DNA of 60,862 nucleotides, filler included, from Jimgerdemannia flammicorona (lineage: Eukaryota): the NCBI GenBank assembly GCA_003990765.1. It is 3 parts of 3 records of this genome, joined end to end, with 100 filler letters (N's around TTAATTAATTAA, not from the genome) between each part and the next. Parts side by side here need not be neighbours in the genome. Positions count along the whole stretch, not along the records: positions 40,645 to 60,862 come from RBNJ01001734.1; 2 more parts are not named here. One strand, given 5' to 3'. Both the position numbers and the translations under genes were made by a program. The stretch's first letter is position 1. Every line of letters starts with the position of its first letter. The notes beneath the pieces are model-generated. The model was not told where the DNA came from. It saw only the letters and a list, made by a program, of their open reading frames with translations, and made no database searches. Shown here in pieces: positions 30,801-60,862 of this stretch.

Positions 30801-30864
30801 TTGTTTATTGTTCAGCTTGAAAGTGAGGGATTTGTCTTGAATCATCAGTCAATGGGCACCAAGT

Positions 30865-37710: not shown

Positions 37711-40544
37711 TCTCTCTGGAGGCAGGAGGGTTTGTCTGTGGGTGTCCATTGGATGAGATTGAAGGAGGCTGTGAGGGTCTACTGGGGAGGAGCTGGTAGA
37801 GAGGCTGGGAGACGGAGGAGGAGGCAAGTACAGTGTGCCTCAAATAGGCTGAGAAGATTGCAGTTGGAGTGGGCTGATTTGCTTACATTCAATGAGATGG
37901 AGGATTGGAGGTTAGAGAGGGCGAAATTGGAGGTAGTAGAACTGCAATGGGTGTCAATGGAGGAGGAGGAGACTCTTATGTGAGGAATGGCTGCTAGGCT
38001 CCAGTGGCAGGGACTTGAGGAGAGAGAGCAGCCTACTAGGTACTTGTCTAGGCTCCTGAAGGCCAGGAGGGTGAGGTATTGGTGGGATGGGGTCTTTGAT
38101 GCTGAGGGAGAGTTGGTGTATGGCACACAGCAGATCCTGGGGGTATTGAAGGAGAAATGGCAGGGTCTGTGGAGTGAGGAAGAAGGGGGTGCTGATGCAG
38201 AGGCAATTGACAACATGCTGGAGAAGTGGAAGCCACCACAGGTAGAGGGACTGGGTGATTTGATCTTACCAGTCCAGGAGGAGGAGATTCAAGGAGTCCT
38301 GGTGGCAACTAAGCTTGGGATAGCACCAGGGGAGGATGGATTACTGTGGGACTTCTGGAAGAAGATGGCAAAAGTTCCTGGAGTACTGGGAGAGTTGGCT
38401 GCCCTCTGTGACCATGTTATTCTAAATGGCATGTGGGTTGGAGAGCAGGACTTAGAGCTGGTGGCCCTTTTGTACAAAGACAAGGGCAGGCACAAGGATT
38501 GGAAGAACTGGGGGCCAATCATGCTTCTGGATATGGACCGGAAGTTGGTGACTAAGGTGATTGTTGTGAGGCTACAGAAGGTTGCTCAACAGGTGTTGGG
38601 TGAGGAGCAGCAGAGCTTTGTAGGAGGTAGACCTATCAGAGATGGGACTGCCTGAGTGCATGGCATTATTGAAGGAGCCAGAGCCTGTGGACTGGATGGT
38701 AGACTGGTCTTTTTGGACCAGAAGAAGGCCTATGACTGTGTTCAGTGGGTTTGGCTGGGCAAGGTGCTGGACAGAATTGGTGTTCCACCATAGTTTCAGG
38801 CTTCTATGTTGAGTTTGTTGGAGGGGAGTAGAGTGGTGCTAATGTGTAATGGTCACAGGTGTTTGGCATTTCCCTTAGGGAGAGGAGTCCCTCAAGGAGA
38901 CCTGCTGTCTCCTATTATTTATGCCCTCTCCCTAGAATCTTTGATGGACAGGATCCATAGGAAGATGACTGGACTCTCTGTGTATGGTGTGGAGTGGAAG
39001 GTGGGGGCCTTTGCAGATGATATGGTAGTTGGACTTGGGTCAGTTGCAGATGTCGAGACTCTTCAGGAAATAGTGGAATAGTATGAGGCATACTCTGGAG
39101 CTAAGCTCAACTGGCATAAGTGTGAGATGATGGTGTTGGGGAATGGGCTCATGAGAGGGGACATCATCGGAACAATTGTCCCCACAGGAGAGGTGGTGCA
39201 GTATCTAGGTATCTTCCTTTCTGTATATGGATCAGTACTGCCACAAGTATGGTGGGAGAGGAGGGTGGTCATTTGGGGGGAGGCTCTAAAAGGTTGGGGG
39301 GGTCATCACATCTCCCTGGTAGGGTGGGTGATGATTCTGAATGGTTACTGGTTCCCCAAGCTGTAGTATGTAGCATATCACTTAGACTTTCCAGCTTGGA
39401 TGGTGAAGAGGCTGACGAAACTGGCTAGGGGTTGGATTTGGGCAGGTAAAAGGGCCCAGATCAGTTGGGATACCCTTGTAGAGCCAGTACTTAGGGGAGG
39501 CCTGGGCCTTGTTGATTTCCCTAAGTGATTACACTACCTGTGAGCTTGATGGTTGAGAAGAGCTGTTGATCTACAGGGTGGAGGCTGGGTACTGCTGATA
39601 CAGAAGGTGTGGGAGATGAGATTTTCCCCCCGGGGGTCCTTAGGGGATCTACTCTCTTTGGTGGGTCTGAATGGGAGCTGACGGATATGGTATAAGGGCT
39701 TCTGGTGGGGTGTGGTAGATGGAGCACACCAGATAGGCCTGCACTGGTATGGCAATGAGGGAGAGGTGGTATGGGGCCCAGCTATGTGGCAATGCGACTA
39801 TCTGCTTCTAGGGAGAGTTCCACTTACTGAGTTTGATATTGGGAATAGAGTGGAGTGTCAGCAGAGAATTGGCCAGGATCTTTGGCTGAGGAGTTGGCAG
39901 GCAGTGCAGATTGGTGAGGAGTGGAACTGGGCAGGGATTTGGTCTTGGGGTGCAGAGGTGCAGTGGTGGCTTCCTCCCAAGTTCTGGGTAGTGTGGTGGT
40001 AGATGCTGCGGAGGAATGTTATGTTGAATTTCTGGGCTGGGCATCTGGTGGATGGTGGTTGGCTGGATTGTGAGAGTGATATAATGTAGGGCAAGCTGGT
40101 GGATTTGTACAGATACTGGATCATTGGCTGGGCGAGTGTGAGGTTCTGGGGGACTTTTGGATAGCTATAGGGGACTGACTAGGGGTTGAAAGAAGACCAG
40201 ATGGACAGAGGGGTCAATGGGAAGATTTGGAATCTAGACTTGTGGGAGGTGTCAGCAATAGGTTGCTTACTGTAGGGTGGGTTATCGCAGTGTGGGTGGG
40301 GTTGGCTGGACATTGGCTCTTTGTTTTTGAGGAGGGACGACAGATAGAGGATATGGGAGAAGTTGCCGAGGTGGGAGGAGTTGGTGGAGGATCTGCTGAC
40401 TGGGTGGTGGATTGGATTGGGACCCCAAGGTGGGTGTCATTGCCATCTGGTGGTCAGGATCTGTGAACAGAGTGGTGGGTGGGTGGAGGTAGTGTTTGAT
40501 AGAGTAGTATTTCATCAAGAAGGGGTAGAGGGGGGGATAGAGAG
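37711..40544 (+). mobile_element. LINE piece C3: RT and C-terminal part of ORF2, running into the gap
   Basis: APGEDGL, NWGPIMLLDMDRKLVTK, GVPQGDLLSP, AFADDMVV, YLGI. Confidence 0.92.
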
Positions 40545-40644
40545 NNNNNNNNNNNNNNNNNNNNNNNNNNNNNNNNNNNNNNNNNNNNTTAATTAATTAA
40601 NNNNNNNNNNNNNNNNNNNNNNNNNNNNNNNNNNNNNNNNNNNN
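40545..40644. other. Scaffold gap containing the artificial linker TTAATTAATTAA (40589-40600)
   Basis: 44 N + linker + 44 N. Confidence 0.95.
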
Positions 40645-41008
40645 TTCAGTTTGACTCAGCTTCATGATCAAGCAGGTGATTTCCAGATTTGTTCAGAGGT
40701 CGCGTGTGATTTCAGTGGCTTGTTCAGAGGGTGACATGTAATTTCGGTGGCTTGGAGGTTGTGCGCTTACAACTCTCCCCTTCTTAGCTTTTGATATTCT
40801 CATCGGAGCCTTCTAATTTTGTTCAGTGGTACAGAGACAATAGGCTTGCTTTCAGTTTTGCCATTTTTCCAGAGGATCAGTATTCTTGTCTTGGTTTGCT
40901 GAGTTCTTGATTTGGTTTGTGATAATTATACTTGTTCGGGAGGATAATATATAGTATGTTCAGATAGGTGTGGAGTATTTGGTTCTAGTTGTTCAAGGAA
41001 TCATATTC

Positions 41009-44000
41009 CTAAACTAGGTCAGTAGCATTCTGGAGATTGGTCTTGGGTTCCCAGGTTGCATCATGGATTGGGTAACCTTTCCATTTGACAAGGTACTCAG
41101 GATGGTTCTTGTTGCCACATTTGTTGAGGATTTGTTCAACTTCGTACTCTTCTTGGTCATTAATGATGACAGGTACAGGTGGTTTGGTGGTCCGGTTTGG
41201 AAATAGCTTGTCATCATTCTCATTATATCGCTTGAGATGTTGAACATTAAAGACTGGGTGAATCTTAATGGTGTTCAGTAGCACCAGTTTGTAGGAGGTT
41301 GGAGAGACTTGTGTGATGACTTCAAATGGTCCAATGAACTTGCTGTTTAGCTTAGTAGATGGTCTGTGCTTGAGGTTGTCAACTTGGTATCCTCTGATGT
41401 CTAGTAGGACTTTTTCTCCAATATCAAAAGTTTCTTCTCAGCGGTGTTGGTTAATATACTGTGATTGTTATTCTTGAGCTTATGATAAATTCTCGATGGC
41501 AATCTGGCTTAAATTGCGCATTTGGAGTAAGAATTCTTCAACAGCTTCAACTGTGGAGGGTTCTTCAGTGGTTTGGATAAGTGTCAAAGGGGTGTTTGGA
41601 TTTTGTCTCATGTTGGTGAAGAATGGGGTCATTCCAAGAGAGGCTTGTTTGCTATTGTTGTAGGCAAACTCAACTGTAGTGAGGTGTTCATGCCAATCAT
41701 CTTGTTTGTAGGAAACATAGTTCCTTAGTATTTATTCCAGAGTTCGGTTCATTCTTTCAGTTTGGCCATCAGTTTCTAGATGAAAGGCTGTGGATAGTGC
41801 AAGTTTTGTTCCAAGGTGTGTATGGAGGGCTTTCCAAAAGTAGCTGGTGAATTTCGGATCTCGGTCACTAACAATGATCTTAGGAAGACCATGATAGCGG
41901 AAGATGTTGTCAAACAAGAGTGTGGCTATGTCTGGTGCTATTGCAGTAGTGGTAGTAGGCACAAAGTGGGCTTGTTTGCTGAGATAGTCTATAAAGACAA
42001 CAATTGCATCTTTCCCATTCTTGGTTCGGGGTAGTTGTACAATGAAGTCCATAGAGATTTGTTCCCAATTTGCAGATGGTACTGGGATAGGGTGAAGTAA
42101 GCCGGGTTTTGCTAGTGTTGAGAACTTGTTTTGTTGGCAGGCATCACAGGAAGTGATATAGGTTTTGAGTTGATCTGCCATATAGGGCCAATAGAAGTTC
42201 CGGGAGATAACTTCATAGCATTTGTCAAATCCTAAATGTCCAGCTGTAGGGGTATCATGACATTCGAATAGGATAGTCCTTCAGAGGTCTCGGTTGTTTG
42301 GGACATACAATCTGTCCTTGTAGTAGATAGCATTGTCCTTAAGTTGGTATTGATTGTACATACCAGGTATGCTTGTCAGCATCATTATTGTTCAGGATTT
42401 CTTGGAGTACCTGAGCTTTCTTATCATCAGTACATACTGCAATGATTTGTTCCATGATAGTGTTGGTAACCAAGGTCAGAGTTTGGATAACCTCTTCGAT
42501 TGGTGGTCTGGAGATTGCATCAGCAACAATATTTTCCTTGCCAGGGTGGTACTGGATTTCGTAGTCAAAGTTGGTGAGGATTTTCATCCATCTGGCTTGC
42601 TTTTGGGAAAGGGTAGCCTGTGTCTTGATATTGACTAATGACTTGTGGTCAGTCAATATGGTGAAGTGTGCTCTTTCTAGATATGGTCACCATTTGATCA
42701 GAGTGTCTACGATGGCTAGCATTTTCTTCTTGTGAGTTGCGTAGTTGATTTTGGCATCATTGAACTTGTGGGAGTGATAGGCCACAGGGTGTCCTTCTTG
42801 CATGAGCACTGCTCTAAGAGCTAGGTCAGAGGCATTAGTAGTGACTTCATATGGTAGGGCAGGGTTTGCTGCTTGAAGTACTGGTGTGGTTATCAGGGCA
42901 TCTTTCAGTGCTTGAAAGGCAGTATCTTGCTCGGGTCCCCAATTTACAAGATTGTTGAAGTCTTTCTCTTGTTTCATGGTCCAGGGTTGTTCTTGTTTCT
43001 TGCTGTGCTTGGTCATTTGGGTGAGGGCAGTAGCGATTTTAGCAAAGTTGGCAACAAATCGCCTATAATAGTTTGCTAATCCCAGGAATGACTGGAGGTC
43101 TTTCAGCTTCTTGGATCTGGGCCAATCCTTGATTGCAGAGATTTTGCTGGAGTCTACTTTGATTCCATTTGGGGTGACAATGTGTCCAAGGAATTGAATT
43201 TCTTTCAGGAGAAATTCGCACTTGCTGAGTTTTGCAAAGAGTCAGTTTTCTTGGAGTTTCAGTAGGACTAGTTCAAGGTGTTCAAGATGTTCCTCCAGGG
43301 TTTTGCTGAAGACTAGGATGTTGTCAATGTAGACAACAACAAATTTGTCCAGATATGGGTGCAGAATAGTATTCATCAATGTCTGGAAGGTTGCTGGGGC
43401 ATTAGTTAAGCCAAAGGGCATAACTAGGAACTCGAAGTATTCATAGTGAGTTCGGAAAGCTGTCTTGTAGATGTCTTCTTCTTTCATGACAATTTGCCAG
43501 TAACCATTTCACAGGTCAAAAGAGCTCATGAATTGTGGGTTGGTGAGCCTATCAAATATTTCATCAATCCTCGGTAGTGGGCAACAGTTCTTGATGGTCT
43601 GTTCATTGAGATCGCGGTAGTCAATGCACATTTGCAGGTCTCCTCCTTTCTTGACAACAAAGAGGACTGGTGCACTATAGGGTGATATGCTGGGTCTGAT
43701 GAATTCTTGTTCTAGGAGTTCATCAATTTCTTTCTTGAGTGCATTGATTTCTCTCGGAGACATGTGGTAGATTGACTTGAAGGCTGGTTTGGCATCTGGA
43801 ATAGTCTTGATTGCATAGTCTACTGCTCATTTGAGAGGTAGGCCTTTCAGGAGCTTCTTTGGGAATATGTCTCGGAATTTCTGGAGTAGTGGTCTGACAT
43901 GGCTGTCAACTTTGGAAAAATCTTCTTCAGAGTTCTCGGGTTCTCCTTTGGATGGTCGGATGGAGATGGCAAAGAGAGGGCATTTCTTGGCCAATTTCTT

Positions 44001-47000
44001 GAGTTGTAGCTTGTTGATGTGGGTGATCTTTAGTCCAGGGTCACTAGAGTTGAGTGAGTCCTTTTCACCTTATAGTTTGAAGTTGTGGCGTCCTTTCTTG
44101 ATGGTCAGAGAATGGTTTACCCAATCAATCATGGGGTTTTCTTGTTTTAACCATAGAGTCCCAAGGATGATTTCATTGTCAGAAAGTGGTACGATTTGGA
44201 GAGTAACATGTACTCAGTAGTCGCCAATTTGGAAGAGTAGATTGTGGACTTCTTTGCAAATAACATGTGAGGTTCCATCAGCTGTAGCAACTGCTTGAGT
44301 TTGCTGTACTGGAGAGGTGAAGACCTTGAGTCTGTTGGTTGTCTCTTCATTGATGAAGTTGCCTGAGGTGCCACTCTCTATCATAATCTTGACAGGTGCT
44401 CTGTTGACAAAAGCCTTAAGGGTGAGCAGTTTGTCTGATCCAATGGTGGTGATTTCAGTTGTAGGAGCCTTTCTTCTGTTGGTTCTTCTTTGAGCCAGTT
44501 CGTTGACACAAGTGAAGCAATCGTCAATCATTCGGGAAGAGTACATTCTAATACCATGAGGGCATCAGCCACTTGGTACATATCCATCTTCAATCTTCTT
44601 GTAGAATTGTTCTTCTTTGTTTATAGTAGGTTGGGCTGGGGCTTTGTTTGATGAGCCAAATCCTTTGGATCCTCGGATGGTGGGCAGTAGTTCAGGGACT
44701 TCCTTGACTATCAGGGTTGACTCAATTTTTTCGAATAGGATCTGGGTGATGCAGAAGCCAATAGGGATCTTGAAGGATGTCTAACTGTGGTTTCGAATGA
44801 GGACAATAATTTCGCCTGTGTAATCCTCATCAATGACTCCTCCTTCTACTGAGAGTTCTTTTAATGCTAGGCTGCTGCGACAGCATATTCTTCCAACATG
44901 TCCTTCAGGGATTTGGATACTGATTCCTGTATAGACTTATTTGACTTCTCGGTTGGAAACTATAGCTTCTTCGGCTACATACAGGTCATATCCGGCTGCT
45001 TTTTGACTTCCTTTGGTTGGGGCCTTAGCAGTTTGTCTTAACTTGACAAAGTCTAGTGTTCTGGTGGTCAGGTTGTTGAGGTGGTGAAGAGTGGTAACAG
45101 TTGCTCGTATTGCTGTTCGGGGTTTTCGGTTGGAGCAGGCACTGGCTATGTGTCCTGTCTTTCAGCAATAAAAGCATGCTCCACTTCTTCAAAGTTCATT
45201 CCTTTCGCCTTCAGTAAGTTTCTTGAAGGTACTGGGCTGGGTGGGTTCAGGATTTCTGGGTGTCCATGAGGTGGATGTGGAGGGAGCTCGGGATGCTTCA
45301 TGCTTGGGTTCTTCTTTCTTGGTCCAAGTCCTTTCCTTGTTGTTAAATTGTCTTCAGGGCAGAATTGGTCCAGCTGTTAGGATTCGCTTGACCATAGTCT
45401 TGATTCTTGCCAGGCACCATTGTTGGTGGTCACAACCAACTGGACAGCCTTGCTCTCAGATTTTTCTAGTAAGCCATTCAGGCAGGGCATCAAATAAATG
45501 TTCTGCTCTTGTACCATTTCGTACTTCATCATTGGTAATGTATCCTAGGCCAACAGTGTTCAGGAGTGACTCAAGTTTTGTACAGAAGGTTTCGAATTCT
45601 TCTTTGCCATGTACATCAAATTTGAGGTTGCGGAGTTTTACTCGAGATTCAGCAATCATGGTTTCACTGCAGTATTGGGCAATCATGAGTTGTTTGAGTC
45701 CAGGGGCTGCAGGATGGGCTCCATATCCTGGGGCATTGTTTGCTGCATTCTGAGCAACTACTGCAGGTCGGGTATCCCATGTGAGGGGTTTTTCAGAAAG
45801 GGTTCGCCACCATTCTTTGGCAGGTCCTTGGAAGAATGTAACAACTCAGTGGACAAAGGCTGTAGTGGTAGTAAAGACTTGTTCCAGGGTGTGGTCTTGA
45901 TTGTTTGTCAGAACGCGGTCAGCAACTCACTCATTGGTCCATTGATTGGCTTCAAAGTTGGTATCAACTACACTAATAAAGCTTTGGACTTCTTGTGCAG
46001 TTCCATTGAAGGTAGGTAGGCTCAGATTTTTGGTAGGTCAGGTCTGTTCAGCTAGGGCAGTGATGGTTGCTGCCATTATATGTAGCTACTTGGGCTGTGA
46101 GGGCTAGAATCTGTTGGTTCGCCATGTTGTTTACTGGAGGCGGTTGGACTGCAGATAGTGGTGTTACTGGTACTACTTGAGGTACTGGTGCAGAGTGTGA
46201 TGGGGTTCATTGGGTCTGTGTAAGTTGCTGGAGTAGTAGTTGTGGATCTGGAGTAAGGGCTTGATAGATAACTGTTTGTTGCTGTGTAGGTGTATTCTGT
46301 CCTGATGGAGGTGCTTCTCCTTCGGTAGTATATCTGAGATCGAATTCAGTGAGATACTCCTCCTCTTCTTCGGTTTGGTCCCCATGTAATTGGGTTTACT
46401 CAGCATCAAAGTATATGGAATCAGTTATATATCTGATTTCAGATGGACTTAATTCAAAGTCAAGTTCAGGTTCGGTATTGGTTTCAGATTCAGGTGGGCT
46501 GTAGCAGGTCCTGCTTGTCAGGTAGTTGGTGAAGGGTTTCTCTTGCTTCTTCCTTAAGGATATGGCAGGCCTTACTGTTCTGGAATCGGTAGTATAAGGC
46601 AGTCTTGGTCCTGGTACAGTGAAAGTCGGTAGAGTTGAGCTACTTGGCTACAGAGGCTTGGGCTTCGTGAGGAACTAAGGCTAGAAAGACTGCTGCTGGT
46701 TGTCCTAGGTCGCTCAGATTTGTGGAGCTGACAAAACTCTTGTTGAGAAGAGTAAAGAAGGCTTCAATAAGACCTTCTTCATCCTGACTTGCTGGGTGTA
46801 GTGCAAGGAGTTCAGTGAATAGGGATTCGCCTATTTGCTGGTTTAACTAGAGTACTTCTTTCTTTGAATAAAGTTTATCCCACTTGTTGCAGGTGTAGAG
46901 GTCAAATTGTCCTTGTACATCAGATTCAATTCTCTCCAGATTGTCAGATAGTTCAAGATAAATTCCAGTTCAGAGGTTGGGCTTTATACCAACTTATAGG
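41009..47000 (-). pseudogene. B1 gag-pol pseudogene: gag, CCHC knuckle, dUTPase, CPHG module, protease, RT, RNase H, integrase, chromodomain
   Basis: [96 protein letters not shown]. The gag start is approximate. Confidence 0.93.
44655..45060 (-). pseudogene. dUTPase domain of B1 (between the nucleocapsid knuckle and the protease)
   Basis: KAAGYDLY; TGISIQIPEGHVGRI; RSSLA; EGGVIDEDYTGEI; ITQILF; RGSKGFGSS. Confidence 0.93.
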
Positions 47001-47076
47001 AATTCTCAGAGGAGTTTGTAGTGGGGTGAGGAAGCGTCTTGAAGTGGAATTGGATTGTAAACCGCTGCTACTAAGT

Positions 47077-49119
47077 TGTAAGAGGGTTACTTTTTAGGGT
47101 AACTGTTACATAGTTCTGGAAAGGTTTTCTGGATATTCTAGATGTTCTGGAAGACTGTTTTCTTATGGTCAAGATCAATTTCGTATGGAGTACATCCTCT
47201 ATGCTTATTGATTTCAAGATCAGGTTGATGTCTCAACCAAAGTCCTTTTTTAGACTAGTTCTGGATGTTCAGGATTTTCTATATTTCGGAAGTTCAAGAA
47301 ACTAAGACCAGCTTAGTTGAATCGGCGTATTGCTGCAGACAATACCCAATTAGGAAATTTCGTGACAGGGTTAGGAGTAGGACCTAACAGGAAGTAGATT
47401 TACTTAAGAGTGGTTTGTGGGTTATGGAATAGGTTTATTTGCTATTCATGATATTGCTATACTAGGAGTAGTTGTGTAAAGGGGTATTGTGGGGAAGTAT
47501 TCAGGAATGTTCTTGTGTGTTTGAGTCTGTTCAAGTCTGAGATTTTGAGGTCTGGGGGAGGGGGTATTTATACTAGTGATGGGCTATCTGGACTATGCTA
47601 AATATGGATGTAGCACTAAGTGCTTTGCTGAGTCAGAATGCAGTCACGTAGTACAAGTGTGATCTGATATGTCAAGAGATTGTCTGACTGCTGAGTCAGT
47701 TCACAGTCACATTGTACAAGGCTAATCTAACTATACTATGACTGCTAGGCTATTTATGGGTTCAGGCGCTGTCTGGGTAGTCCTTGATGATATCACCATC
47801 GATTGCATCATCTCTGATGAAGTAGTCATCTAGAAATAATGGTTCGCAGATTACTTCTCCTTATTCGCTGAGGTAATAGTACATTGGAACTTCATCTCCG
47901 TCCCACAGAATAGCATCATCTGTCTCATATGCTGGATAAGGTGTTGGTGGGTGGAGGAGGGGTGCATCATCTTCGCTTTCGTCAGATTCACTGTCTGCAT
48001 ACCTTCTATAGGTTATGGCACTGTAAGTTGCAGGGTTATAGTATGCTGGCAGCTGTGGTTCATATCATTCATACTCAGGTGGTGGAGTGGTTGGTTCAAT
48101 CTTGAGGGTTGTCTGGAGGTACAGGTTGTGTTCTCCGGTCTCTTCATTGTAGTTGAAGTAATCGGGGGTGAATGCGGGTTGGTATTCATGCCAGTGGTCA
48201 TTGTCCCAATAAGTCTCGTATGTGGTTATGAACTGTTGTAAGTTCATCGGCAAGGTTGGCAGTGTGATCAGAGTTGGCAGAGATACTTGGCTAGAGGTCA
48301 TGTTAGTGTCAGAGGGATCATTGTCTTCTGCTTCATCTTTATCGAAGTGGATTATACATATCATAGACATCCTTCATGGCATATCCAACTTGAGGTATTT
48401 GCAGGATTTGATCATTGGAGTGTGGGAAGGTTCTATCTGTGGTTTCGATGTACTCAAGGTACTTGTGGTTGAGTTCTTGTATCATGTCATCGATTTGGCC
48501 ATAGGACAGGGTAGCAACCATTTCGCTGGTAGTGACTCGGAGGTGGGGAATAATGGTACTGTACTCATAGAAGAGTTCTCGATGTTTGCGGGCAATGAGC
48601 TTCTGGTGTTGAGACATCTGGGTAATGTCTGTATCATGGTGGTGATTGACCATGTCTTCCAGGAGGCAGCTGATCTGGTAGTAGCTTGAGATTTGTCCGA
48701 TTCGGTGGGCCTCGCTAAGCATGTTCAGAGTGTTCCATCGGGCTTCCACGAAGTAGAGGGGTGCCAGGCTATGGATATTCATGAGGGGCAGAGGGGGTGT
48801 GGCTTGGTTGACAATGGCATTCCAAATGTCAGCGCGGATATGGTTGTAGATCTCAGTGGTCATGTTTGTGTATTTGGAAGTTGTGGTTGTTGTTTGTTTT
48901 GGTTCTCTGATTCGACGCATCTCGGTGCTCGGTATATATGCATTTGGTCCTGATTGGTAAGATTCTGTTTGTGTAATTCTTGTGTTCTGTGACTTCGTAT
49001 TGACTCAGCTTTGTGCGCTGTGACTTCAGTTTGACTCAGCTTCATGATCGAGCAGGTGATTTCCAGATTTGTTCAGAGGTCATGTGTAATTTTGGTAGCT
49101 TGGAGGTTGTGCACTTATA
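47077..49119 (-). repeat. 5' LTR of B1, 2043 bp
   Basis: T(G>A)TAAG...CTTACA inverted termini; homologous segments at 10038-11408, 40645-40771, 49120-49461 and 51801-52927. Confidence 0.9.
47861..48920 (-). pseudogene. LTR-encoded ORF of family B (~350 codons reconstructed), function unknown
   Basis: ORFs 48339-48920 and 48065-48370 plus the downstream frame join after removing a 4-bp duplication at 48353-48360; the paralog near 52520-52545 is in frame there; one internal TGA at 48065-48067. Confidence 0.7.
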
Positions 49120-49461
49120 AAACCACTCTTAAGTAAATCCGCTCCCTGTTAGGTCCTACTCCTAACCCCATTACGAAATTTCCTAATTGGGTATTGTCTG
49201 TAGCGATATTCCAATTCAACTAAGCTGGCCTTAGTTTCTTAAACTTCCTGAAATATGGAAAATCCTGAACATCTAGAACTAGTCTGAAAAAAGGACTTTG
49301 GTTGAGATGTCAACCTGATCTTGAAATCAATAAGCATAGAGGACATACTCCATATGATATTGATCTTGACCATAAGAAAACAGTCTTCCAGAATATCCAG
49401 AACCTCTAGAAAACCCTTCCAGAACTATGTAATGGTTACCCTAAAAAGCAACCCTCTTACA
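49120..49461 (+). mobile_element. 3' end of another family B LTR (B2), into which B1 inserted in the opposite orientation
   Basis: Reverse complement of ~47077-47416, ending CCCTCTTACA; no PBS follows. Confidence 0.88.
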
Positions 49462-52400
49462 TTCAGTCTTTCTTAAGACTAGCAAACGATTATTGATAAT
49501 TTGTTACAAACTTTATCAAGATCACTACTATCCTTATCTAACTGATCAAGTATAGTAAAAAAAAAGAACAGCCCTGAACCACAAAGTAAGAAAACGACTT
49601 CAACAATCTTGTAAATTGGGAACCTAAACAAGATATAGGCTTTTAAGCTTAAATAATATCCTAATAACTATCTCAGCTCTTCAAGTAGTAAACTCTGTCT
49701 AACTTATGAAATTATCACTAATGTCTCTGACCTAGCTCTTGGAGTAGTACTTATGTAAGAAGGACATCATATAGTCTATTATTCTTCTAAGTTTAATAAT
49801 ACTGAATCAACTATAATGTATAAGAAAGAAATATTAGCCATTATAGACACTCTGATTAAATGACATCCATGCTTTATATCTCCAGATCACTAATTAAAGA
49901 AGTTATACAAACTCTCACCTTAGTTATCAACTCAATCATAGAATAAATTATTACAGCATACACTAATGATAAAGAAGCTTAAGTATTCTGAGAAATCCTA
50001 AGTAGTAATGATATCAATAAGTACTCTTAATATCATCAATAATATTTGATGGACAGTACTATCTATTATAAGAATAGATTATATATTCCTAATAATTGAG
50101 ACCTCTAAAGGACCATTCTATTTAAATATCATAATCCCCCTATAGCTGGACATTTAGAATTCAATAAATGTTATATAGTTATTTCTCAAAACTTTTATTA
50201 ACTCTGAATGGCAGACTAGTTAAAGACCTATATCATTTCCTATGATATCTACTAATATAATAAGTCCTCAACTCTAGCAAAATCTAAATTACTCTATACC
50301 TTCTGCTAATTGAGAACAAATCTCTATAGACTTCATTATACAACTACCCTGAACCAAGAATAGAAAAGATGCAATTGTTGTCTTTATAGATTACTATAGT
50401 AAATATGCCTACTTTATACCTACTATTACTATCACAACTCTATCTAAAATTACTATACTCTTATTTTACAATATCTTCTACTATTATGATCTTTCTAAAT
50501 TATCAGTAACTGAGATACAAAATTTACCAGCTATTTTTGGAAAGCTCTATATATATACCTTGAAACAAAACTTATACTATCTATAGCCTTTTATCTTGAA
50601 ACTGAAATTCAAACTGAAAGGATGAACTGATGTGTTTCCTATAGACAAGATGATGGCATGAATACCTTACTGCTATTAAGTTTGCCTATAATAATAGAAA
50701 CAAGCATCTCTTGGAATAATCCCATTCTTTACCAATATAGAATAAAATCTGAACACCCCTCTGATCATTATCAGAATTATTAATAAACTCTCCACTGTTG
50801 AAGCTATTGAAGAATTCCACTCTAAATGTGCCACTTAAGCCAGATTGCAATTGAGAATTTATCTTGAGCTCAAGAGCAATAATCATAGTATATCAACTAG
50901 TATTACCAAGAAGAAACTTTTGATATTAGAGAAAAAGTTCTATTAGATATCTGAGGATATTAAGTTGAAAACCTCAAGCATAGACCCTCAATAAAACTGA
51001 ACAGTAAGGTCATTTGGACCATTCAAAGTTATAGTATAAGTCTTTCTAATATTTTACAAATTAGTATTATCTAATACTATCAAGATTTGCCCTATCTTTA
51101 ATATTCAATATCTTGAGTGATATAATGAAAATGATGATAAACTATTTCCAAATTAAACTACAAAACCAACAGTACCTATTATTGTTAATGATTAAGAAAA
51201 ATAAGAAACTGAACAAATTCTCAACAAATATAGCCACAAGATCTATCCAGAATACTTAAACAAATGGAAAGATTACTTAATCCATAATGCTATATAGGAA
51301 TCCAAAGAATATTGTTGACTTAGTTCAAGAATATAACTTCTTAAACAATTGGTTGAATATTTCAATATCAATTATCTCTATATAATATATTACTCCTCTC
51401 TAATACTATTAAATACACACTTACCTAAAATTATTATGAACAAAATTGAGGACTCAGCAAGTTAAGATAAAAAGAAATACTAACTCTTTAAAAAATAGTA
51501 AAACTGAAAGACAGCCTATCTCTCTATATTACCAGTAGGATATAGGGTATAAATATTTAAGAAGATTTCTTAAAGAAAATTATTCTACAGTAAATAACAT
51601 CAGAATCACTTCTGGAATATAGTATTGAACTTATAACTCTTTAATATATAAATCCAATATATTAGGCAACTATACTATGAGCATACTACTTTCTGAGAAA
51701 AGAAAATATTACTGAACTTTTAACCATTCAAATAGTGTAACAATACTTGATAAAATTAGAAGACTTTGATGAGAATATCAAAAACTAAGTAGAGGAGAGT
51801 TGTAAGTACAAAATCTTCTAGTTATCAAAATTACACATTACTCTCAGAACAAACTTAGAAATCACATACAAGATTATGAAGCTGAGTCAAACCAAAGTCA
51901 TAGATTATAAAGCTAAGTTAACTCAAAGTAATAGAATATAAGATATACAGAAATGGAATCTTACCAATTAAGACTAGAAGTATCTATACTAAATATATAA
52001 TATGTTAAAATAAAGAACTACAATAAACAATAACAATAACTCTCAAATATATATCCAACCATAACAACTAAAGTCAATAACTACATCTATACTAATATTT
52101 GAAATTCTATTATAAACCAAGCTGCAGTACTCCTATCCCTCATGAATATTTATAGTCTAATACTCCTTCATTTTATAATGTTCAATGGAATACTCTGAAC
52201 ATATTTAGTGAGACCCACCAAATTAGACAAATCTCAAGCTACTACTAGATAAGCTATCTCTTAGAAGATATAGTTAACTCTTAATACTAGAAACTCATCT
52301 CTTATAAATACTGAGAACTTTTTATGAGTACAGTATCTTTATTCTCTATTTCCAAGTTACTACTGCTGAAATAGTTGCTATACTGACCTATAACCAAATC

Positions 52401-52927
52401 AATAATATGGTACAAGAACCTAACCACAAATATATTGAGTATACCTAAACTACAGACAGATTCTTCTTACATCCAGATAACCATATCCTGCAAATTCCCT
52501 AAGTTGGATATACTATGAAAGATGTCTTTGATATAATTCAGTTTAACAATAATGAAGCAGAAGACAATAATCTCTCTGATACTGATATGATCTCTAGCTA
52601 AGAATCTCTGCCAAAACTGATCACCCTGTCAACCTTGCTAATAAACTTACAATAGTTTATAATTATATATAAGATCTATTAGAATAATGACTATTGAAAC
52701 AAGTACTAGCCTACATTTATATCTAACTATTTTAACTACAATAAAGAGATTAAAGAACATAATCTATATCTCCAGACAATCCTAGAGATAGAATCCACAA
52801 CCCAACCTTCTGAGTATGAGTGAAATGATTAACAGCTGCTAGCATATTATAACCCTACAACATATAGTATTATAATCTACTCAAGGTATGCTAACAGTAA
52901 ATCTGATAAAAAAGAAGATAATATACT
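49462..52927 (+). mobile_element. Older family B element (B3): end of RT, RNase H, integrase, chromodomain, PPT, 3' LTR from 51801 (truncated by LINE C4)
   Basis: Collinear with the reverse complement of B1 from ~43100; PPT agaggagagt then TGTAAG at 51801; heavy C-to-T and G-to-A decay. Confidence 0.88.
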
Positions 52928-55115
52928 GAGGAGGAGGGTGGGGCTGATACTACTGTCATTTATCATACTTTGGAGGATTGGCACCCACTACAGGTAGAAG
53001 AGCTGGGCAGCCTGGTGCTGCCAGTATAGGAGGAGGAGATTTGTCAGATTCTTGCTGTGACTATACTATATATAGCACTAGGGGAGGATTGCCTGCTCTG
53101 GGATTTTTGGAAGAAAATGGTGGGTGTCTCTAGTATATTGTGAGAGCTGATGGTACTTTGTGACTTAGTACTATAGTCTAGAAGATGGGCAGGTGAGCAG
53201 GATCTTAGGCTGGTGGTACTGCTTTATAAGAATAAGAGTAGAAGAGAGAACTGAAAGAACTGGAGGCTGATCATACTACTGAACATAGACAGAAAGTTAG
53301 TTACTAAGGTAGTAGTAGTGAGGCTGTAGAAGGTGGCCCAATAGATCTTAGGAGAGGAGTAGCAGGGCTTTATAGAGGGCTAGCTTATTAGAGATAGCAT
53401 AGCTTGGGTATATGGTATTATTGAAGAGGTACAAGTCTGTAGACTAAATTTGTACCTGGTCTTCCTAGATCAGGAAAAGGTATATAACCATGTTAAGTAA
53501 GTCTAGATAGCAAAGTTACTGAATTGGATTGACACCCCTCAGTAGTTCTGAGTAGTAATAGTTAGTCTACTGGAAGAGAGTAGAGCTATGCTCATGTATA
53601 ATAAATATTGAGAGGTGGCTTTCTCTCTATGTAGGGGTGTTTCTCAGAGAGACCCACTGTCTTTCATTCTATATACTCTCTTCTTGAAGTATTTAATGGA
53701 TAGGATTTCATAGAGGATAGTAGGGCTTTTAGTATAGAATATTGAATGAAAAGTTAGTGCCTCTACAGATAATATAGTGGTCAGGCTGAGTTTGATTGCT
53801 GATATTGATGAGCTCAGAGAGACTTAGTATAGAGTATACTCTGGGGCTGAACTCAGTTGAGTAATAGTCTGGTGGAGGGGGATGTCATCAGAACAATTAT
53901 CCCTACTGGGGAGGTAGTGAGCTACTTAGATATATATCTCTTAGTATATGAGTTAGTCCTACTAAGGCTGTGGTGGAAGTAGTGGGTTACAATCTGAAGA
54001 GAGACCCTGTAGAGTTGGAGAGGCCACCACTTGTCTCTGGCAGAGTATGTTTCAATTTTGAATATTTACTGGCTATCAAATTTGTAATATTTGGCTTATT
54101 ATCTAAAATTTCTGATATGTGTAGTAAAGAGATTATTGAAATTGGCCAAGGAATAGATCTGGGCTAAGAGGAAGATTAGCTGAAAAATCTTGTCTTTGCC
54201 AGCAGCTAGAAGGAGACTCAGACTGGTTGACTTTCTGAAGGGGTTATACTATCTGAGAGCATGGTGGCTAAAGAGAGTGATAGAGCTGAGAGGCAGTAGC
54301 TGGGTTCCTCTGATGAAGAAGATTTGGAAGATAAGGTCCTCATCAAGAGGTTCTACAGGAGATCTGCTGTCCTTAGTTGGGCTTCAGAACAATGAGTGCA
54401 TGCAGTTTAAGAGCTTCTGGTAGGAAGTAGTGGTTGGGGTACACTATATTGAGATTCAATGGTGGGGAGATGAAGGAGAGATACCTTGGGGCCCAGCAAT
54501 GTAAAGATGGGACCAAGTGTTGTTGGAGGGCATCCCCTTAGATAACTTCAATATTATTAATAGAGTCAAGTACCAGCAGGAGTTAGGGCAGGATCTGTGG
54601 TCCAGCAGATGGCAGTTGGTGGATATTAGAGAAGAGTGGAACTGAAATAGGGTCTGGGCTTAGAGTGCTGAGGTTAGGTAATAGCTGCCACTAAAGTATT
54701 GGGTGGTCTGATGGTATATATTGAGAAAGAATATTATGCTCAACTTTTACTCAGGCCACCTTATAGAGAGTGAAAGCTTTGACTATGAGGAGTGCTATAA
54801 TGTTAGACAGGAAGGAGGTTTTGTATGGATGACAAAACATTGACTAGGAGAGTGTGAGGTGCTTAGTGATTTCTGGATAGTAGTTTGGAAATGATTGGGT
54901 ATTGTGTATAGAGAGGATGGTGTGAGGGGTCAGTGGAAGGATTAGCAGGATAGATTGGTGGAAAGGTTGGGAATGAGTGGCTTACTTTAGGATGGGTACT
55001 GACTGTTTGGATGGGGTTTGTAGATCACTGATTGTTTGTTTTTGAGAAAGGGAGGTAACTGGGTTTAGAAGTGCAGCTGTTAAGATGGGAAGAGTTATTG
55101 GAAGATACTCTGATG
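52928..55115 (+). mobile_element. LINE piece C4 (ORF2 RT region, 5'-truncated, interrupted near its 3' end by C5)
   Basis: Homologous to ~17773-20000. Confidence 0.88.
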
Positions 55116-55119
55116 CAGA

Positions 55120-58100
55120 GACAATATATAGTATCTTTCTCTGATAATATTCAGGTTATACAATATTTGGCAGTACTTCCAACATAGCTTCTAGAGAAAA
55201 GCTACTAGTATCATGGCAATCATTGGATATCTCAAGGTGTGTACTGGGCAGAGTAGCCCAGGTGCTTTTGACTAGCAGTATGTGGAGAGAGGCCCTGGCT
55301 TGGGGGATCTGCTGGTGGGAGGATGTGATAGGGGAGAGGGTAGTGCTGGAGGCCAGGGGACAGGAAGGGTGAGCTTCATGGAGAAGATGAAGGGGGGTCA
55401 GCAGGGAGCAGAGTTAGAGAGTTAGCTGAAGGGGGAAAAGGCAATAGTGAAGACTACTGAGCAGTGGCCTCCTGGGAAAGTCTCTCTGGGGGGTGGGGCT
55501 GGGGATATAGGAGCTGAAGGGGTGACTGCTGATGGGAGAGTGACTGGTGATCAGGAAAAAAATCTAGATGAGACTGCTGATAGTGGACCAAGTAGTGGGA
55601 AATGTACAGGGCCTAGTGATCTAGTAGATGGTATAATGAGACTGGTAGTGGCTCCATTACTCAAGAAGTTGATCTTAGAGTTCGCAGTTACCTTGTGCTT
55701 CTGAGGCTTAGTAGTGACTGCAAAAATGATCTTGGGGCTGATTGCTAAGCAGGTAGCTGGAGCAGCATTCATGAAGTTCTTAAAGGGGCAGAAAGGAGTA
55801 GAGGTGGACTTTGAGGAAACTAGAGCATTGGAGGAGGCACTGAAGGCAGAGTTGTCAGTTGGAGAGGTGTGTGTTTTGATGGTGTGCTATCTGAGATTAG
55901 ACCCCAGGGTAGTGCAATTGCTGTTGAAGGGGGTATCTATGATGACACCTGAGAAGATGAGGAAGAGGGTTGTGGATCTCATAGTAGAATATAGCAAGGT
56001 AGTAGATATTGGGTTCCAGGTCTGGGAGGGGACCTCTTTTAGGACTACAGATATTGATAATCAAATTCAGTTAGCAGGGAAGAAAGCTACTGGAAAAGCT
56101 AGAGACTGGCCTTCAGTAATGGTCTGGAGAGCTTTCCAGTGCAAGGTGATGAGGGTGAAGGGGAGTGAGGAGGAGAAAGAGGATCTGCTGGAAGTGCTAG
56201 AAGAGCTGAGCAGTACTGTAGAGCAGAGGACTAAGGCTTGAAAGATGTATGTCAAGTTGATACATTTGGAAGTAGTAAATAGAAAGAGGATTCAGATTAA
56301 TAAGGGGTGGTGGAAGAGGTCCCAAGATCACAAGAGATAGAGAGAGCTGTTGGCAAAGCTGAAAAGCAGAGCAAAAGCAGATATTAGTTGTGTCAAAATT
56401 GTGAGAAGAGTCAAGGAGAGTGTCAGGGCTGGCAAGGATAGAGAGAATGCATAGAAGGGGCCAGGAGGGGGAGAGGAGGTGAAGCATAATGAGCCTTATG
56501 CAGATGGTACCTTTGAGGTCTGGAAGTCATCCCTAATTCCTATACTACTTATTAGATAAGTTCCAGCTTCAAGGGGTAGGGTGGCAGAGGATATATCTAT
56601 ATGGAGAGTCTAGAGGGTACACTTTGTGGTTCCTGAGGTAGCAAAGGGGGTGCAGGTAGTTGCAGTAGGTGAGAATGAACTGGTGGATATTCAGGAGGAG
56701 GAGTGATATGAGGCTGCAAGCATGGGGGCTGATATCTCTATGCTGGATAGAGAGAGGCCAGCAACTTCTAGAGGGAAGGAAGTGGGTAATCTGCTATAGA
56801 TGTACAAGATGATGACCAACTTTGTGGCAGAGGAACTTAGGGAGGTGGACCTGCAAGTGATGAGTGACAAGCATTGGGCTCATGTCCGGTAAGGTGAGAG
56901 AGTGGTGGAGGTGTTGAAGGCAGAGATACTTGTAATTTACCTGGAGGAGGGAGGGTATGAGATAGATAAGGAGAGGGAGGTGGGGCTGGCAGTTATTGCT
57001 AGTGAAAGAGCTAATTTCTGTTGGGCTGAGCAGCATGGGTTGCAGTTATGGAAGGAGGCCTGCCTGAAGTATTATGATGAATTTGAGGAGAAGGAAGATG
57101 GGAAGCTTAAGGAACTCCTGGCTGGATTAAAGGAAAAGATGATTGTAGAAGAGGAGGAAGCTATGGAGTATAACTTAGACCTGGCTCAGAATGAGAGAAA
57201 TATGGAGCAATAGAGAAAGTACTTACTTTTATATATTATTTATTATGAACAGTATAACCAATATTTTTTTGCTGAATGTGAATAGGCTCTGTAGTTCTTT
57301 TTATAGATGGAACTTTCTTACTTGGCTGAAGAGATTAGAGGTCAATTTCTTTCTTTTGCAAGATATCAGGTATAAGGATGATTTAGATAGACTAGAATAG
57401 ATGAAAGAATAGAGAGTAGAAGCAGTTTGGAAAGGCATGGTTAGGATAATGGTCAGGAAGGGCAGAGGAGAAGTCCAGTTTGTACAGAACTGGTGAGACA
57501 GGCTGGTTTGGGGTGAGTGGATTCACACTGGTTGGGAACCAGTTATGGTTGGATCCTGCTACTGTCCTATAGTGAGAAGTGAGTGTGTAGAGTGGGTGAA
57601 GGGTCTCCAGAAGGAAGGGATGCTAGTAGAGGCTGGAGTGGATGTGCTTTGAGGGACTTTAATATGATCAGGGATGCACAGTTGGATAGGACTGATGGAG
57701 GGCAGGAGACAGAGGAAAGGAGTGGCAGTTTGGAGATATGGGAGGAAGTTGAGAGGCTGAGTGCTTTGGTGAATGCTGACAGGGAGTTATGGAGTAACAG
57801 AAGGGTGTATACTCACCGGGCAAGTGGTCTGGGGATAAGGATTGACTGGATATTGACAGTGGACTGCTGAGGTCGGAATATTTGGAGATCACTAGAGGTG
57901 GAATGGTATCTGGGGTCAGATCATTGGAGACTGTTGAGACATAGCCATTTTGGAGGGAGTGGTAATGGACCCAGACATTGGCATCTCAACTTCTCTCTGG
58001 TAGACAATATAGTTTTGTGTGACAGGTGTGCTGAGGATATTCAGCAGTAGGTAGAAGAGTGGATATAGAAAGATATCTCAGTTGGTATTCAATGAGTGAG

Positions 58101-60862
58101 ACTGAAGGAGGCTGGTAGGATTTTTTGGAGAGAGGCAGGTGCAGTAGCTGGAAAACAGAGAAGGAAGAAGAGATTGTGGGCCACTACAAGGCTGACATAA
58201 TTGTTGGAAGATTGGATGGATTGGGTGACCCTGGAGGGGGTGGAGAATTAGAGATCATGATGGATGAAGAAAGAGAATGGAGAGTTGTAACAGATATTAT
58301 AGGTGGAAGAGGAAGCATAGGTGCAGGATATGAAAGTGTGGCTCTATTGGCAGAGACTAGAGGAAGAGGAGAGGCCCTCTAAATTTCTCATAAGGGTCCT
58401 TCCAGCGAGGAAGGTTCAGCAGAGATGAGAGGGGGTTCTTGATTCTGAAGGGAAATTGGTTTATGGTATATAAGATATTCTAAGGTCATTAAAGGAGCAG
58501 TAGAGTGGTTTGTGGAGTAAGAAGGAGGGCGGGGCAGATAATAAATATATTGAAGATTTGATACCTACTATAGATAGAAGAACTGGACAATATGGTGATA
58601 CTAGTGCAAGAGGAGGAGATTTTCCAGGTTCTTGCTATGACTATGCTAAGAATAGCTCTGGGTGAGAATGGTCTGCTCTGGGCTTTCTGAAAGAAGATGG
58701 TGGATGTTCCTGGTATACTGAGAGAGATGAGGGTGCTCTGTGACTTGGTACTGAAGTCCAGGAGATAGATAGAGGAGCAGGATCTGGGGCTATTTATACT
58801 GCTGTATAAGAATAAGAACAGGAGGGAGGACTGGAGGAACTGGAGGCTGATTATGCTACTGAACATAGACAGGAAGTTGAATATTAAGGTAGTGGTAGCA
58901 AGGCTGTAGAAGGTAGCTCAGCAGATCTTAGGAGTGGAACAATGGAGATTTGTAGGTGGACAACTTATTAGAGATGGCACAGCTTGGGAGCATGGTGTTA
59001 TTGAAGAGGCATGGGCCTGTGGATTAGATAGATACCTAGTTTTCTTAGATCAGGAGAAGGTTTATGACTGTGTCCAGAGAGGCAGGTTGTCTAAGGTACT
59101 AGTCAGAATTGGAGTCCCTCATCAGTTCCAAGGTCAGCCTGCTGGAAGGGAGCAGAGCTGCACTTACATATAAAGGATATTGAGGGGGGGCCTTTTCTCT
59201 GTAGAAGTGTTCTCTAGAGGGATCCACTATCTCCCATTTTGTATGCTCTCTCTCTAGAGCCCTTAATGGATAAGATTTAGCAGAAAATTGGAAAGCTCTC
59301 AGTTTATGGTATTGAGTAGAAAGTTGGGGCCTTTGTAATTGATATGATAGTCAGCCTGGGTTCAATTGCTGATATTGTACAGCTCAAGAAAACTGTGGAG
59401 TGGTATGAGATCTACTCTGGGGCTAAACTCAATTAGCATAAGTATAAAACAATGGTGCTGGGTAATGGGCTGGTAGAGGGGGAGGTTATTGGAACAATTG
59501 TCTCTTCTGGTGAGGCACTGAGGTACTTGGGCATCTATATATCAGTGTATGGGTCTGTTCTTCCAAATCTCTAGTGGGAACAGTGGGTGGTAATCTGGAG
59601 AGAGGTCTTGTAAAGCTAGAGAGACTGCTACTTGTTGCTGGCAGGGCATGTTTCTGTATTGAATACTTACTGACTGCCAAAGGTATAGTATCTAGTCTAT
59701 TACCTGGACTTTCTAGTCTAGATAGTGAAGAGACTGTTGAAACTGGCCAAGGGATAGATCTGGGCATAGAGAAGGAGTCAGATTAGCTGGGAAATTCTGT
59801 CCCTACTGATGACTAAAGGGGGCCATGAACTGGTTGACTTCCTGAAGAGACTATACTGCTTAAGAGCACAATAGCTGAAGAGAGCTATTGAGCTGTGGGG
59901 TGGCAGCTGGGTCTCTCTATTGAAGAAGATCCAAGAGATGAGATTCTTACTAAGAGGGTCTACAGAGGATCTTCTGGTCTTAGTTGGGCTGTGAAACATT
60001 GGCCATATGCAGTATAATGGTTTTTGATTGTGAGTTGTTGATGGGGTATACTGTATTGACATTCATTAGTAAGGGAATGAGGGTGAAATACCTTGGGGCT
60101 CAGCAATATTGAGGTGGGACTGAGTGTTGCTGGGAGGCATCCCCCTTAGTGACTTTGATATTTGTTATGGGGTTGAGTGCCAGAGGGGGTTGGGGCAGGA
60201 TCTGTGGCCCAGCAGATAGCAGTTGGTAGGTATTGGTGAAGAGTTGGACTAGAATAGAATCTGGAGCTAGTGAGCTGAGGTTTGGCAGTAGATGCTACTG
60301 AAGTACTGGATGGTCTGGTAGCACATGTTGCAGAGGAATGTTATGCTCAACTTCCACTCTGGCCACCTGGTAGAAGGGGGAAATTTTGACTGTGAGGAGT
60401 ACTATAATGTGGGACAGGAAGAGGGTTTCATACAGATGCCTGAACACTGGCTAGGAGAGTATGAGATACTTAGTGACTTTTAGATAGAGGTTGGAAAGAG
60501 GTTGGGTGTCATATGGTGGGGGGATGGTGTGAGGAATTAGGTAGAGGATCTCCAAGATAGATTGGTAGAAGGGATTGAGAGTGAATAGCTTATATTAGGA
60601 TGGGTGCTAGCTATATGGGTAGGGCTAGCAGGATACTAGTTATATATATTTGAGGATGAGAGATACCTGGGCTTAGAAATATAGCTGGTGTGATAAGAGG
60701 ATCTGGTGGAGGATACTCTGAAGGGCTGGTGGCTTAGGTGGGGACTACAAAGTGGTTGGCAGTATTATCTGGTGGAGAAGATCTGTGGCCAAGATGGGGG
60801 GAGGGTTAGAGTTGTGTAAGACAGAGTGATTTTCAAGCATGAAGGGGTGAGGGGGTGAGGGG
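55120..60862 (+). mobile_element. Near full-length decayed LINE C5 (ORF1 ~55213-57213; ORF2 from 57245 to the window end)
   Basis: Collinear with C2: MNSITNIFLLNVN, DFNMI, IRIDWIL, SDHW, FLDQEKVYD, CEEY..HWLGE. Confidence 0.9.

Follow-up and report, generated by a model that had tools for sequence, protein, structure and literature searches.

The locus analyzed here raises the question of whether a long terminal repeat (LTR) of a fungal retrotransposon can harbor a protein-coding gene of the element itself. LTRs are treated as non-coding control regions and are masked by annotation pipelines, and those of fungal gypsy elements are, to our knowledge, usually short. The window, i.e., the whole stretch of DNA under analysis, comprised 60,862 bases of the Jimgerdemannia flammicorona genome (assembly GCA_003990765.1) in the form of three contigs joined via N44-TTAATTAATTAA-N44 linkers at positions 20226–20325 and 40545–40644. 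The initial annotation had interpreted positions 47077–49119 as a 2-kb chromovirus LTR that encodes an accessory protein. Our analysis indicates that this segment is probably the 2,043-bp LTR of a fungal Ty3/gypsy chromovirus carrying a genuine extra gene of the element.

The element at 40645–49119 on the minus strand (copy A) is a Ty3/gypsy chromovirus. Its pol (41009–45161, minus strand) encodes the protease, reverse transcriptase (RT), RNase H, integrase and chromodomain in the order expected of chromoviruses. Pfam matches were obtained for the aspartyl protease (44546–44214), RVT_1 (43487–43242, E = 1e-16), RT_RNaseH_2 (43016–42687, E = 2e-25), the integrase core rve (42181–41732, E = 2e-7, slightly below the curated cut-off) and, directly downstream of the latter, Chromo PF00385 (41284–41009, E = 1.3e-15, 57 bits), all on the minus strand, which places the chromodomain at the integrase C-terminus as in other chromoviruses. 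The gag region (45192–46650, minus strand) gave weak Retrotrans_gag matches (E = 0.0014 and 0.032), both below the cut-off, and contains stops and a frameshift near 46080. Copy A is dead; its pol is interrupted by at least 12 in-frame stops and at least one frameshift, with nine single stops in 45161–42342, then the frameshift and at least three more stops. The distance from the primer-binding site (PBS) to the clearest gag start is ~1 kb (46073–47076, minus strand). The frame 46647–46051 on the same strand may correspond to an N-terminal extension of gag, joined via the frameshift near 46080, where related metagenome contigs display 2- and 4-nt deletions.

Two further copies of the LTR are present in the window. 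Copy B, on the plus strand, has retained the last 342 nt of its 5′ LTR (49120–49461), which abut the start of the copy A 5′ LTR in a nested arrangement, and its 3′ LTR from the start to the equivalent of 47966 (51801–52927), heavily C>T/G>A mutated and ended by an element resembling long interspersed nuclear elements (LINE-like). Copy C is an LTR fragment on the minus strand (10191–11407) equivalent to 47077–48292, and it contains the 3′ 177 codons of the LTR-borne open reading frame (ORF) discussed below; a tandem duplication of the final ~155 nt of the LTR is present in this copy (10037–10193, minus strand). A tblastn search of the whole window revealed no ORF copies besides those in A, B and C.

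The LTR starts could be aligned three ways from T(G/A)TAAG, at 49119, at 40771 (the 3′ end of copy A) and at 51801 (copy B). A purine tract of the AAGAAGGGGAGAG type is situated just ahead of the starts at 40771 and 51801, whereas the start at 49119 abuts unrelated DNA instead. In copy A, the 5′ LTR (47077–49119, minus strand, 2,043 bp) begins with TATAAG, a mutated TGTAAG, and ends with CTTACA. The polypurine tract (PPT) AAGAAGGGGAGAG (40773–40785, minus strand) adjoins the start of the 3′ LTR, of which a stub of the first ~127 nt with an extra 32-nt repeat unit (40645–40771, minus strand) precedes the contig end and the linker. Three bases past the LTR end there is a PBS-like site TAGTAGCAGCGG (47062–47073, minus strand), which reads TGGTAGCAGCGG in most related contigs from soil metagenomes: base 47072 is changed from T to C in 1162.7 of the 1172.4 depth units in metagenome X1, and similarly in X2 and X3, giving the canonical PBS starting with TGG. 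Neither tRNA genes nor Rfam families were found in the window, hence the PBS was not matched to any tRNA. Joints and loose ends of the soil-metagenome contigs fall at 40769–40772 and at 47077, which marks these positions as the element termini. The direct TG...CA LTRs, PBS and PPT expected of a chromovirus were thus all found, with the LTR pair assembled from copies A, B and C, and the previously proposed LTR boundaries were confirmed by the alignment of the starts, by the CTTACA end with its PBS-like site and by the contig joints.

The ORF is continuous with both LTR ends. In BLAST comparisons, 47966–49120 of copy A matched 52922–51800 of copy B with 71% identity, which connects the ORF with the LTR start, and 47077–48292 matched 10191–11407 of copy C with 86% identity, which connects it with the LTR end. 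The ORF is located upstream of the PBS and gag in copy A, and it follows pol and the PPT in copy B; both arrangements are possible only for a sequence that is part of the LTR. It might be argued that the true LTR is short and that the ORF segment is either an internal ORF3 situated between pol and the LTR or a separate nested insertion in one copy, since fungal gypsy LTRs usually measure a few hundred bp, the LTRs of the other LTR retrotransposon in the window measure ~450 bp and no element in the window has both LTRs complete. Such an erroneous delimitation is, however, very improbable in view of the two placements of the ORF, before the PBS and gag in A and after pol and the PPT in B, of the shared start (TGTAAG next to the PPT) and end (CTTACA ahead of the PBS) that flank it, of the junction between its 3′ half and the LTR end in copy C and of the metagenome contigs that break exactly at both termini. 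An internal segment or separate insertion, the alternative that the initial annotation itself had named, was not borne out, the ORF being linked to the LTR start in A and B and to the LTR end in A and C.

In copy A, the ORF extends over 47762–48920 on the minus strand, ancestrally ~384 codons, and is broken three times. The first frame opens with the ATG at 48920 and closes with a TAA at 48339 (193 amino acids, aa); a 4-nt insertion, the placement of which is ambiguous within 48354–48361, shifts the frame, and without this insertion the frame goes on. The second part is interrupted by a premature TGA (48067–48065) and a premature TAA (47863–47861) and ends with the TGA at 47764–47762, considered the natural ORF end because the homologous protein P0002 ends there too. 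The limits originally assigned to the ORF (48920–47861, ~350 codons) were therefore correct at the start and not at the end, 47861 belonging to the premature TAA and the true end, at 47762, giving ~384 codons. In addition to the frameshift, the second frame holds the in-frame TGA at 48067–48065. The statement that the frameshift is absent from the copy at 52.5 kb was correct: copy B does not have the 4-nt insertion. The break density in copy A amounted to two stops and one frameshift in 1.16 kb of the ORF versus ~13 breaks in ~4.15 kb of pol; the ORF is no more decayed than the pol of the same copy.

Two database proteins supported the coding potential of the ORF. P0001 (128 aa, 91% identical, E = 4e-70) covers ORF residues 20–147, and seven of its 12 differences from copy A are each accounted for by one C>T or G>A change in A, six of the seven at CpG. 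Copy A is thus a P0001-like sequence in decayed form. The other protein, P0002 (247 aa, encoded on a 998-nt contig), begins at frame residue 134 and shows 64% identity over its overlap with the N-terminal query and 67% identity to the read-through C-terminal half. None of the three breaks of copy A interrupts its frame, which has Q at the position of the TGA and N at that of the TAA, and its C-terminal end ...EYPDSI corresponds to ...DYPDSA-stop in copy A; the two indels between them, each of 2 aa, are both in frame. A loose end of a contig in metagenome X2 at the place of the TGA contains DNA reading ...EYEQHE... when translated. A phmmer search over 1.84 billion representatives returned five matches at E ≤ 0.001, among which P0003–P0005 (E from 3e-9 to 5e-4) were rejected as spurious, being internally repetitive and matching in several short stretches. 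In the protein searches by length, one of the 20 near-length candidates obtained with the N-terminal half and none of the 59 shorter candidates was confirmed, and the search started from P0002 confirmed only P0002 itself among 81 candidates.

The substitutions between the copies were then informative about selection. Transversions at codon positions 1, 2 and 3 numbered 13, 9 and 24 between A and B, and 2, 2 and 7 between A and C, so that the third-position bias, the absence of which had been named in advance as an argument against a gene, was clearly seen (24/46 and 7/11). In a context-matched permutation, 18 of the 46 transversions between A and B were synonymous versus 7.8 ± 2.5 expected (P = 0.0004), and six of the 11 between A and C versus 1.6 ± 1.2 expected (P = 0.002). 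Synonymous transitions were in slight excess (82 vs. 70.9 and 33 vs. 26.1 expected, P about 0.05). No synonymous excess was observed in the two shifted frames of the ORF. The positive control, the integrase–chromodomain region of the same two copies, gave 29 synonymous transversions out of 53 versus 9.3 expected. Omega values calculated by hand from the counts were ~0.32 for the LTR ORF and ~0.18 for the integrase, both inflated by neutral post-insertion decay. The transversion-based check that had been proposed thus yielded a synonymous excess of two to four times the expectation, in the ORF frame only and about as strong as in the integrase.

A chance open frame in non-coding LTR DNA would fit the lack of a recognizable domain or confident fold and the low confidence of the structure predictions, and the antisense strand of the LTR is also open over frames of 96–155 aa. 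The frame-specific synonymous excess, the bias of transversions to the third codon position, the in-frame indels and the 247-aa frame kept open in a lineage only 67% identical make this explanation barely credible. Altogether, as judged from the substitution patterns, these comparisons demonstrate that the ORF is, or was, a real gene, under purifying selection while the family diversified; the reading as an LTR-borne accessory gene is supported by both the frame-specific synonymous excess and P0002 being open across the breaks.

The arrangement of sequence motifs points to the position of the ORF within the LTR. A likely TATA box of the LTR promoter, TATAAATA (47565–47572, minus strand), and a likely polyadenylation signal, AATAAA (47434–47439, minus strand), were read from the sequence downstream of the ORF, and the border between the repeated region (R) and the unique 5′ region (U5) was placed at ~47410–47420. 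These motifs suggest that the unique 3′ region (U3) covers ~49119–47540, R ~47540–47415 and U5 ~47415–47077. The ORF begins 200 nt past the LTR start, and its end is separated by ~190 nt from the TATA box; because the candidate TATA box lies downstream of it, the ORF would be contained wholly in U3. It follows pol and the PPT and is placed in U3, hence in both LTRs, as are retroviral U3 accessory genes, with the U3/R border drawn from motifs. Two tandem copies of a 31-nt repeat (48980–49042, minus strand) occur within the initial 200 nt of the LTR, ahead of the ORF, each with a TGASTCA motif (49001–49007 and 49032–49038), and the core of this repeat is kept in the 3′ stub of copy A and in copy B. 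A second pair of TGASTCA motifs (47629–47635 and 47692–47698, minus strand) is situated past the ORF stop and ahead of the TATA box. The motif corresponds to a binding site of the AP-1/Gcn4 type. Altogether, four such sites, in two pairs, occur in the 2,043-nt LTR versus ~0.4 expected at the window-wide rate, with no enrichment over the whole window (12 sites vs. 12.6 expected). TATATA is present ~20 nt ahead of the ORF ATG.

With this arrangement, the genomic RNA would lack the ORF at its 5′ end and carry it as a 3′-terminal ORF after pol and the PPT; reverse transcription would copy it into both LTRs. To be translated, the ORF would require a subgenomic (spliced) transcript or else a separate promoter, for which the first 200 nt of the LTR, with the 31-nt repeat, its paired TGASTCA motifs and TATATA, are a candidate. 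In run X13, guessed to be RNA, no splice-like joint was seen, and no inference on transcription was drawn from it.

The other LTR copies in the window are strongly decayed, mostly via C>T/G>A changes. All aligned CpG sites of copy A were changed in B (28/28) and in C (17/17); no CpG is left in B or C, with 21 and 35, respectively, expected from composition, and copy A has 39 versus 88 expected. In copy B, CA was converted to TA at 59 of the 128 sites. This repeat decay strikes CpG at least as hard as CpA, a CpG-plus-CpA spectrum and not the classic CpA-only pattern of repeat-induced point mutation. Over the 305 codons that can be compared, 16 stops interrupt the ORF remnant of copy B, which has also lost single nucleotides at three places and 30 nt at one; the part in copy C has four premature stops in 177 codons. 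Hence, the earlier notion that homologous reading frames persist in other copies holds for the sequence and not for the frames, which are not open, and the retention of the gene in solo LTRs was not borne out either, since copy C is a truncated LTR fragment with four premature stops and not a demonstrated solo LTR.

The element family is present as many contigs in several soil metagenomes, in which both forms of the ORF, the frameshifted one and that without the 4-nt insertion, were found, the latter in eight contigs of X1, four of X2 and two of X3. No confirmed relatives were detected in the JGI metagenome contigs or in IMG/VR, despite pattern matches (390 and 375 in JGI, 550 in IMG/VR). The ORF segment showed approximately twice the contig depth of gag-pol in X1–X3, which was set aside since contig depth cannot rank the parts of a stretch. 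Copies A and B meet at the junction 49119/49120 in opposite orientation, and the break corresponds to the equivalent of 47416, near the predicted R/U5 border. In several metagenome contigs the LTR start is joined to internal portions of this family, which suggests frequent nesting of the element into its own copies.

Several observations speak against the interpretation of the LTR ORF as a gene of the element. The ORF is intact in none of the three window copies. All three share the TGA at 48067, and the TAA at 47863 occurs in both copies reaching that place; these shared stops may be inherited, that is, a subfamily may have spread with a dead ORF. Contigs without the 4-nt insertion hold 77.5 of the 468.7 (X1), 34.4 of the 87.4 (X2) and 8.88 of the 47.3 (X3) units of contig depth summed at this place, contig depth not being equal to copy number; if most copies are frameshifted, the intact protein is not needed in cis, and a frameshifted subfamily may have spread with its ORF split. 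Two full LTRs occur on no single element here, the contig end cutting the 3′ LTR of copy A after ~127 nt. The Pfam search with the ORF protein returned nothing (the best match being DUF6869 at E = 0.07), the PDB sequence search nothing below E = 0.3 and the ESM Atlas search no usable match. Only two credible homologues were found in libraries of 5.8 and 1.84 billion proteins, both fragments on contigs of ~1 kb, and database-listed proteins are pre-selected for open frames. The selection test comprised 57 transversions in two comparisons that share the branch of copy A, with the substitutions polarized arbitrarily from A.

Part of these observations would be accommodated if the ORF, from a host gene or another element, had once entered the LTR of a master copy by capture, had been conserved for some time and had then become dispensable, now decaying family-wide and playing no part in the life cycle of the element. 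The stops common to the copies in the window, the frameshift in the young copy A, the coexistence of both indel forms in the metagenome contigs and the position of the ORF between two promoter-like modules with the same motif, a position that could result from insertion into an older and shorter U3, are all in accordance with such a passenger. However, the synonymous excess, about as strong as for the integrase, arose between the element copies, i.e., after any capture, no cellular or other homologue was found as a source, and a lineage with 33% divergence in protein is still open over 247 codons. The shared TGA is explicable by parallel CpG decay, because an ancestral CGA would have been changed to TGA on one strand and to CAA, the Q of P0002, on the other; such parallel hits are common, as B and C share two further stops where copy A is open. 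We consider a dispensable passenger rather unlikely.

If the ORF is a gene of the element, its product would consist of a helical N-terminal half of ~190 aa and an apparently disordered, acidic, aromatic- and proline-rich tail of ~195 aa. The C-terminal 196 aa have a net charge of −37, with 22% D/E, 10% Tyr and 11% Pro, and the best-conserved block, nearly invariant between the two lineages, is situated within this acidic tail: LQQFITTYETYW...YQPAFTPDYFNYNE.TGEHNLYLQTT. AlphaFold2 (AF2) modelled the first 187 aa as six or seven helices with a mean predicted local distance difference test (pLDDT) score of 44, i.e., low confidence; for P0002 the mean pLDDT was 29, and the ESM Atlas's own model of P0002 had a pLDDT of 0.39. 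The initially described acidic Tyr/Pro-rich tail was thus corroborated by the net charge of −37 over 196 aa, and the helical character of the N-terminal half was modelled at low confidence only.

The combination of a helical domain with a conserved acidic, aromatic-rich disordered tail has the look of acidic activation or adaptor regions. The helical half and this tail, together with the location at the 3′ end in U3, raised the tentative hypothesis that the product acts in trans as a regulator or adaptor for the element. The protein would be translated from a subgenomic RNA or expressed via its own promoter within the initial 200 nt of the LTR and would then raise the expression of the element, as do the 3′-end, U3-overlapping transactivators of complex retroviruses; it would probably be dispensable in cis.

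Alternatively, in line with the anti-silencing role considered in the initial annotation, the product might act not as a transcriptional regulator but in counter-defense, as a suppressor of RNA silencing, of DNA methylation/heterochromatin or of repeat-induced mutation. The evidence from selection and location is the same as for the regulator. Counter-defense would pay in a host that mutates repeats as heavily as this one, with every aligned CpG of copy A changed in B and C and 59 of 128 CA sites converted to TA in B, and acidic disordered tails occur in chromatin-binding proteins too. On the other hand, no similarity to known suppressors was found, the family is heavily mutated here, so that any protection failed in these copies, and the sequence offers nothing to separate counter-defense from other trans-acting roles. 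This role seems unlikely.

A broader, rather doubtful proposal is that of a "complex" retrotransposon in which each LTR is a gene cassette, with a promoter module of a TGASTCA pair and a TATA box, the 384-codon ORF and a polyadenylation signal, expressing a trans-acting factor even from solo LTRs. The factor would transactivate the LTRs of the family via the paired motifs or blunt the silencing of repeats, and the gene would be a fungal counterpart of retroviral accessory genes of the Tas/Tax/Nef type. The frameshifted form might be read through by a +1 ribosomal shift within the 20 nt before the TAA at 48341–48339. Programmed +1 frameshifting at the 4-nt insertion was considered and no supporting evidence was obtained.

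Retroviral genes located in U3 or overlapping it include mouse mammary tumor virus (MMTV) sag, human and simian immunodeficiency virus (HIV/SIV) nef and foamy-virus tas/bel, and foamy-virus Tas, too, is acidic in its C-terminal region. Like sag, nef and tas, the ORF described here stands 3′ of pol and the PPT, in U3, is copied into both LTRs and would be accessory by position. Unlike them, it is found in a fungal host in an element with no env, lies wholly inside U3 and does not overlap its edge; searches of Pfam, the PDB sequences and the ESM Atlas with the ORF protein brought up nothing related to sag, nef or tas/bel, with which it shares no sequence similarity. By analogy of position, the LTR gene would work like the retroviral U3 genes, and it is not a member of those families. 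The element shares with other chromoviruses, besides a putative gag, a pol of the protease–RT–RNase H–integrase order, the C-terminal chromodomain, TG...CA LTRs, PBS, PPT and nesting into its own family, and differs from them in the 2,043-bp LTR with a gene of ~384 codons.

Additional genes have been described in other LTR retrotransposons. According to the available part of PMC8365987, the Boty-like gypsy elements of Botrytis cinerea carry an extra gene, brtn, antisense by the title of the work cited there (Zhao et al. 2011); there, too, a fungal gypsy-type element has an additional gene outside the standard genome annotation, whereas the LTR ORF is in the sense orientation and inside the LTR, and the two are likened by description and not by sequence. 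The available part of PMC3485330 reports for Retrosat2 of rice LTRs of >3.2 kb and a lineage-specific ORF0 without homologues elsewhere, i.e., likewise unusually long LTRs plus a lineage-specific extra ORF, although in a plant element and with ORF0 regarded as an ORF in its own right, outside the LTR. The accessible portions of PMC11302176, PMC4031123 and PMC2774666 have no bearing on ORFs inside LTRs. In the full-text literature covered, which leaves out most subscription journals, no fungal retrotransposon with a protein-coding ORF in its LTR was found to be described. As far as these partly available sources go, extra ORFs in LTR retrotransposons are already known, and the position inside a fungal LTR is what differs here. 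If the interpretation is correct, accessory genes in the position of nef, sag and tas are not confined to vertebrate retroviruses, every LTR, solo LTRs included, is a potential source of protein, and the ORF becomes a concrete candidate for self-regulation of a fungal retroelement or for countering of repeat-directed mutation or silencing.

The remainder of the window is mostly transposon debris with strong C>T/G>A decay and a GC content as low as 14–30%. A very AT-rich block (5001–6000, GC 14%) contains internal direct repeats at 5159–5902. A different LTR retrotransposon occupies 24629–31333, with LTRs of ~450 bp (24636–25076 and 30872–31323) that are 89% alike, and an inverted partial copy of it (75% alike) at 7361–10038 abuts chromovirus fragment C. 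LINE-like (non-LTR) retroelement copies extend over 11407–20225, 37700–40544 and 52927–60862, with an RVT_1 match at 38806–39081; their mutual likeness is 62–76% and the G-over-C skew of the coding strand is unusually strong (GC skew of 0.4–0.5). Chromovirus LTR copies B and C are each truncated by a LINE-like copy. The contig ends sit at about the same place in the LINE-like element or in the chromovirus LTR, and the linkers contain stop codons in all six frames. Two host genes, from which a fungal and probably ascomycete host seemed likely, mark the left edge of the repeat-rich region: an exon of an NDUFS8/TYKY-type complex I subunit (2941–3606, minus strand), the best PDB match of which was chain 7zm7_I of a filamentous ascomycete (E = 8.5e-26), followed by Yarrowia-type NUIM chains, and a frame at 4359–4796 (plus strand), which we take from its translation to be RPS26-like.

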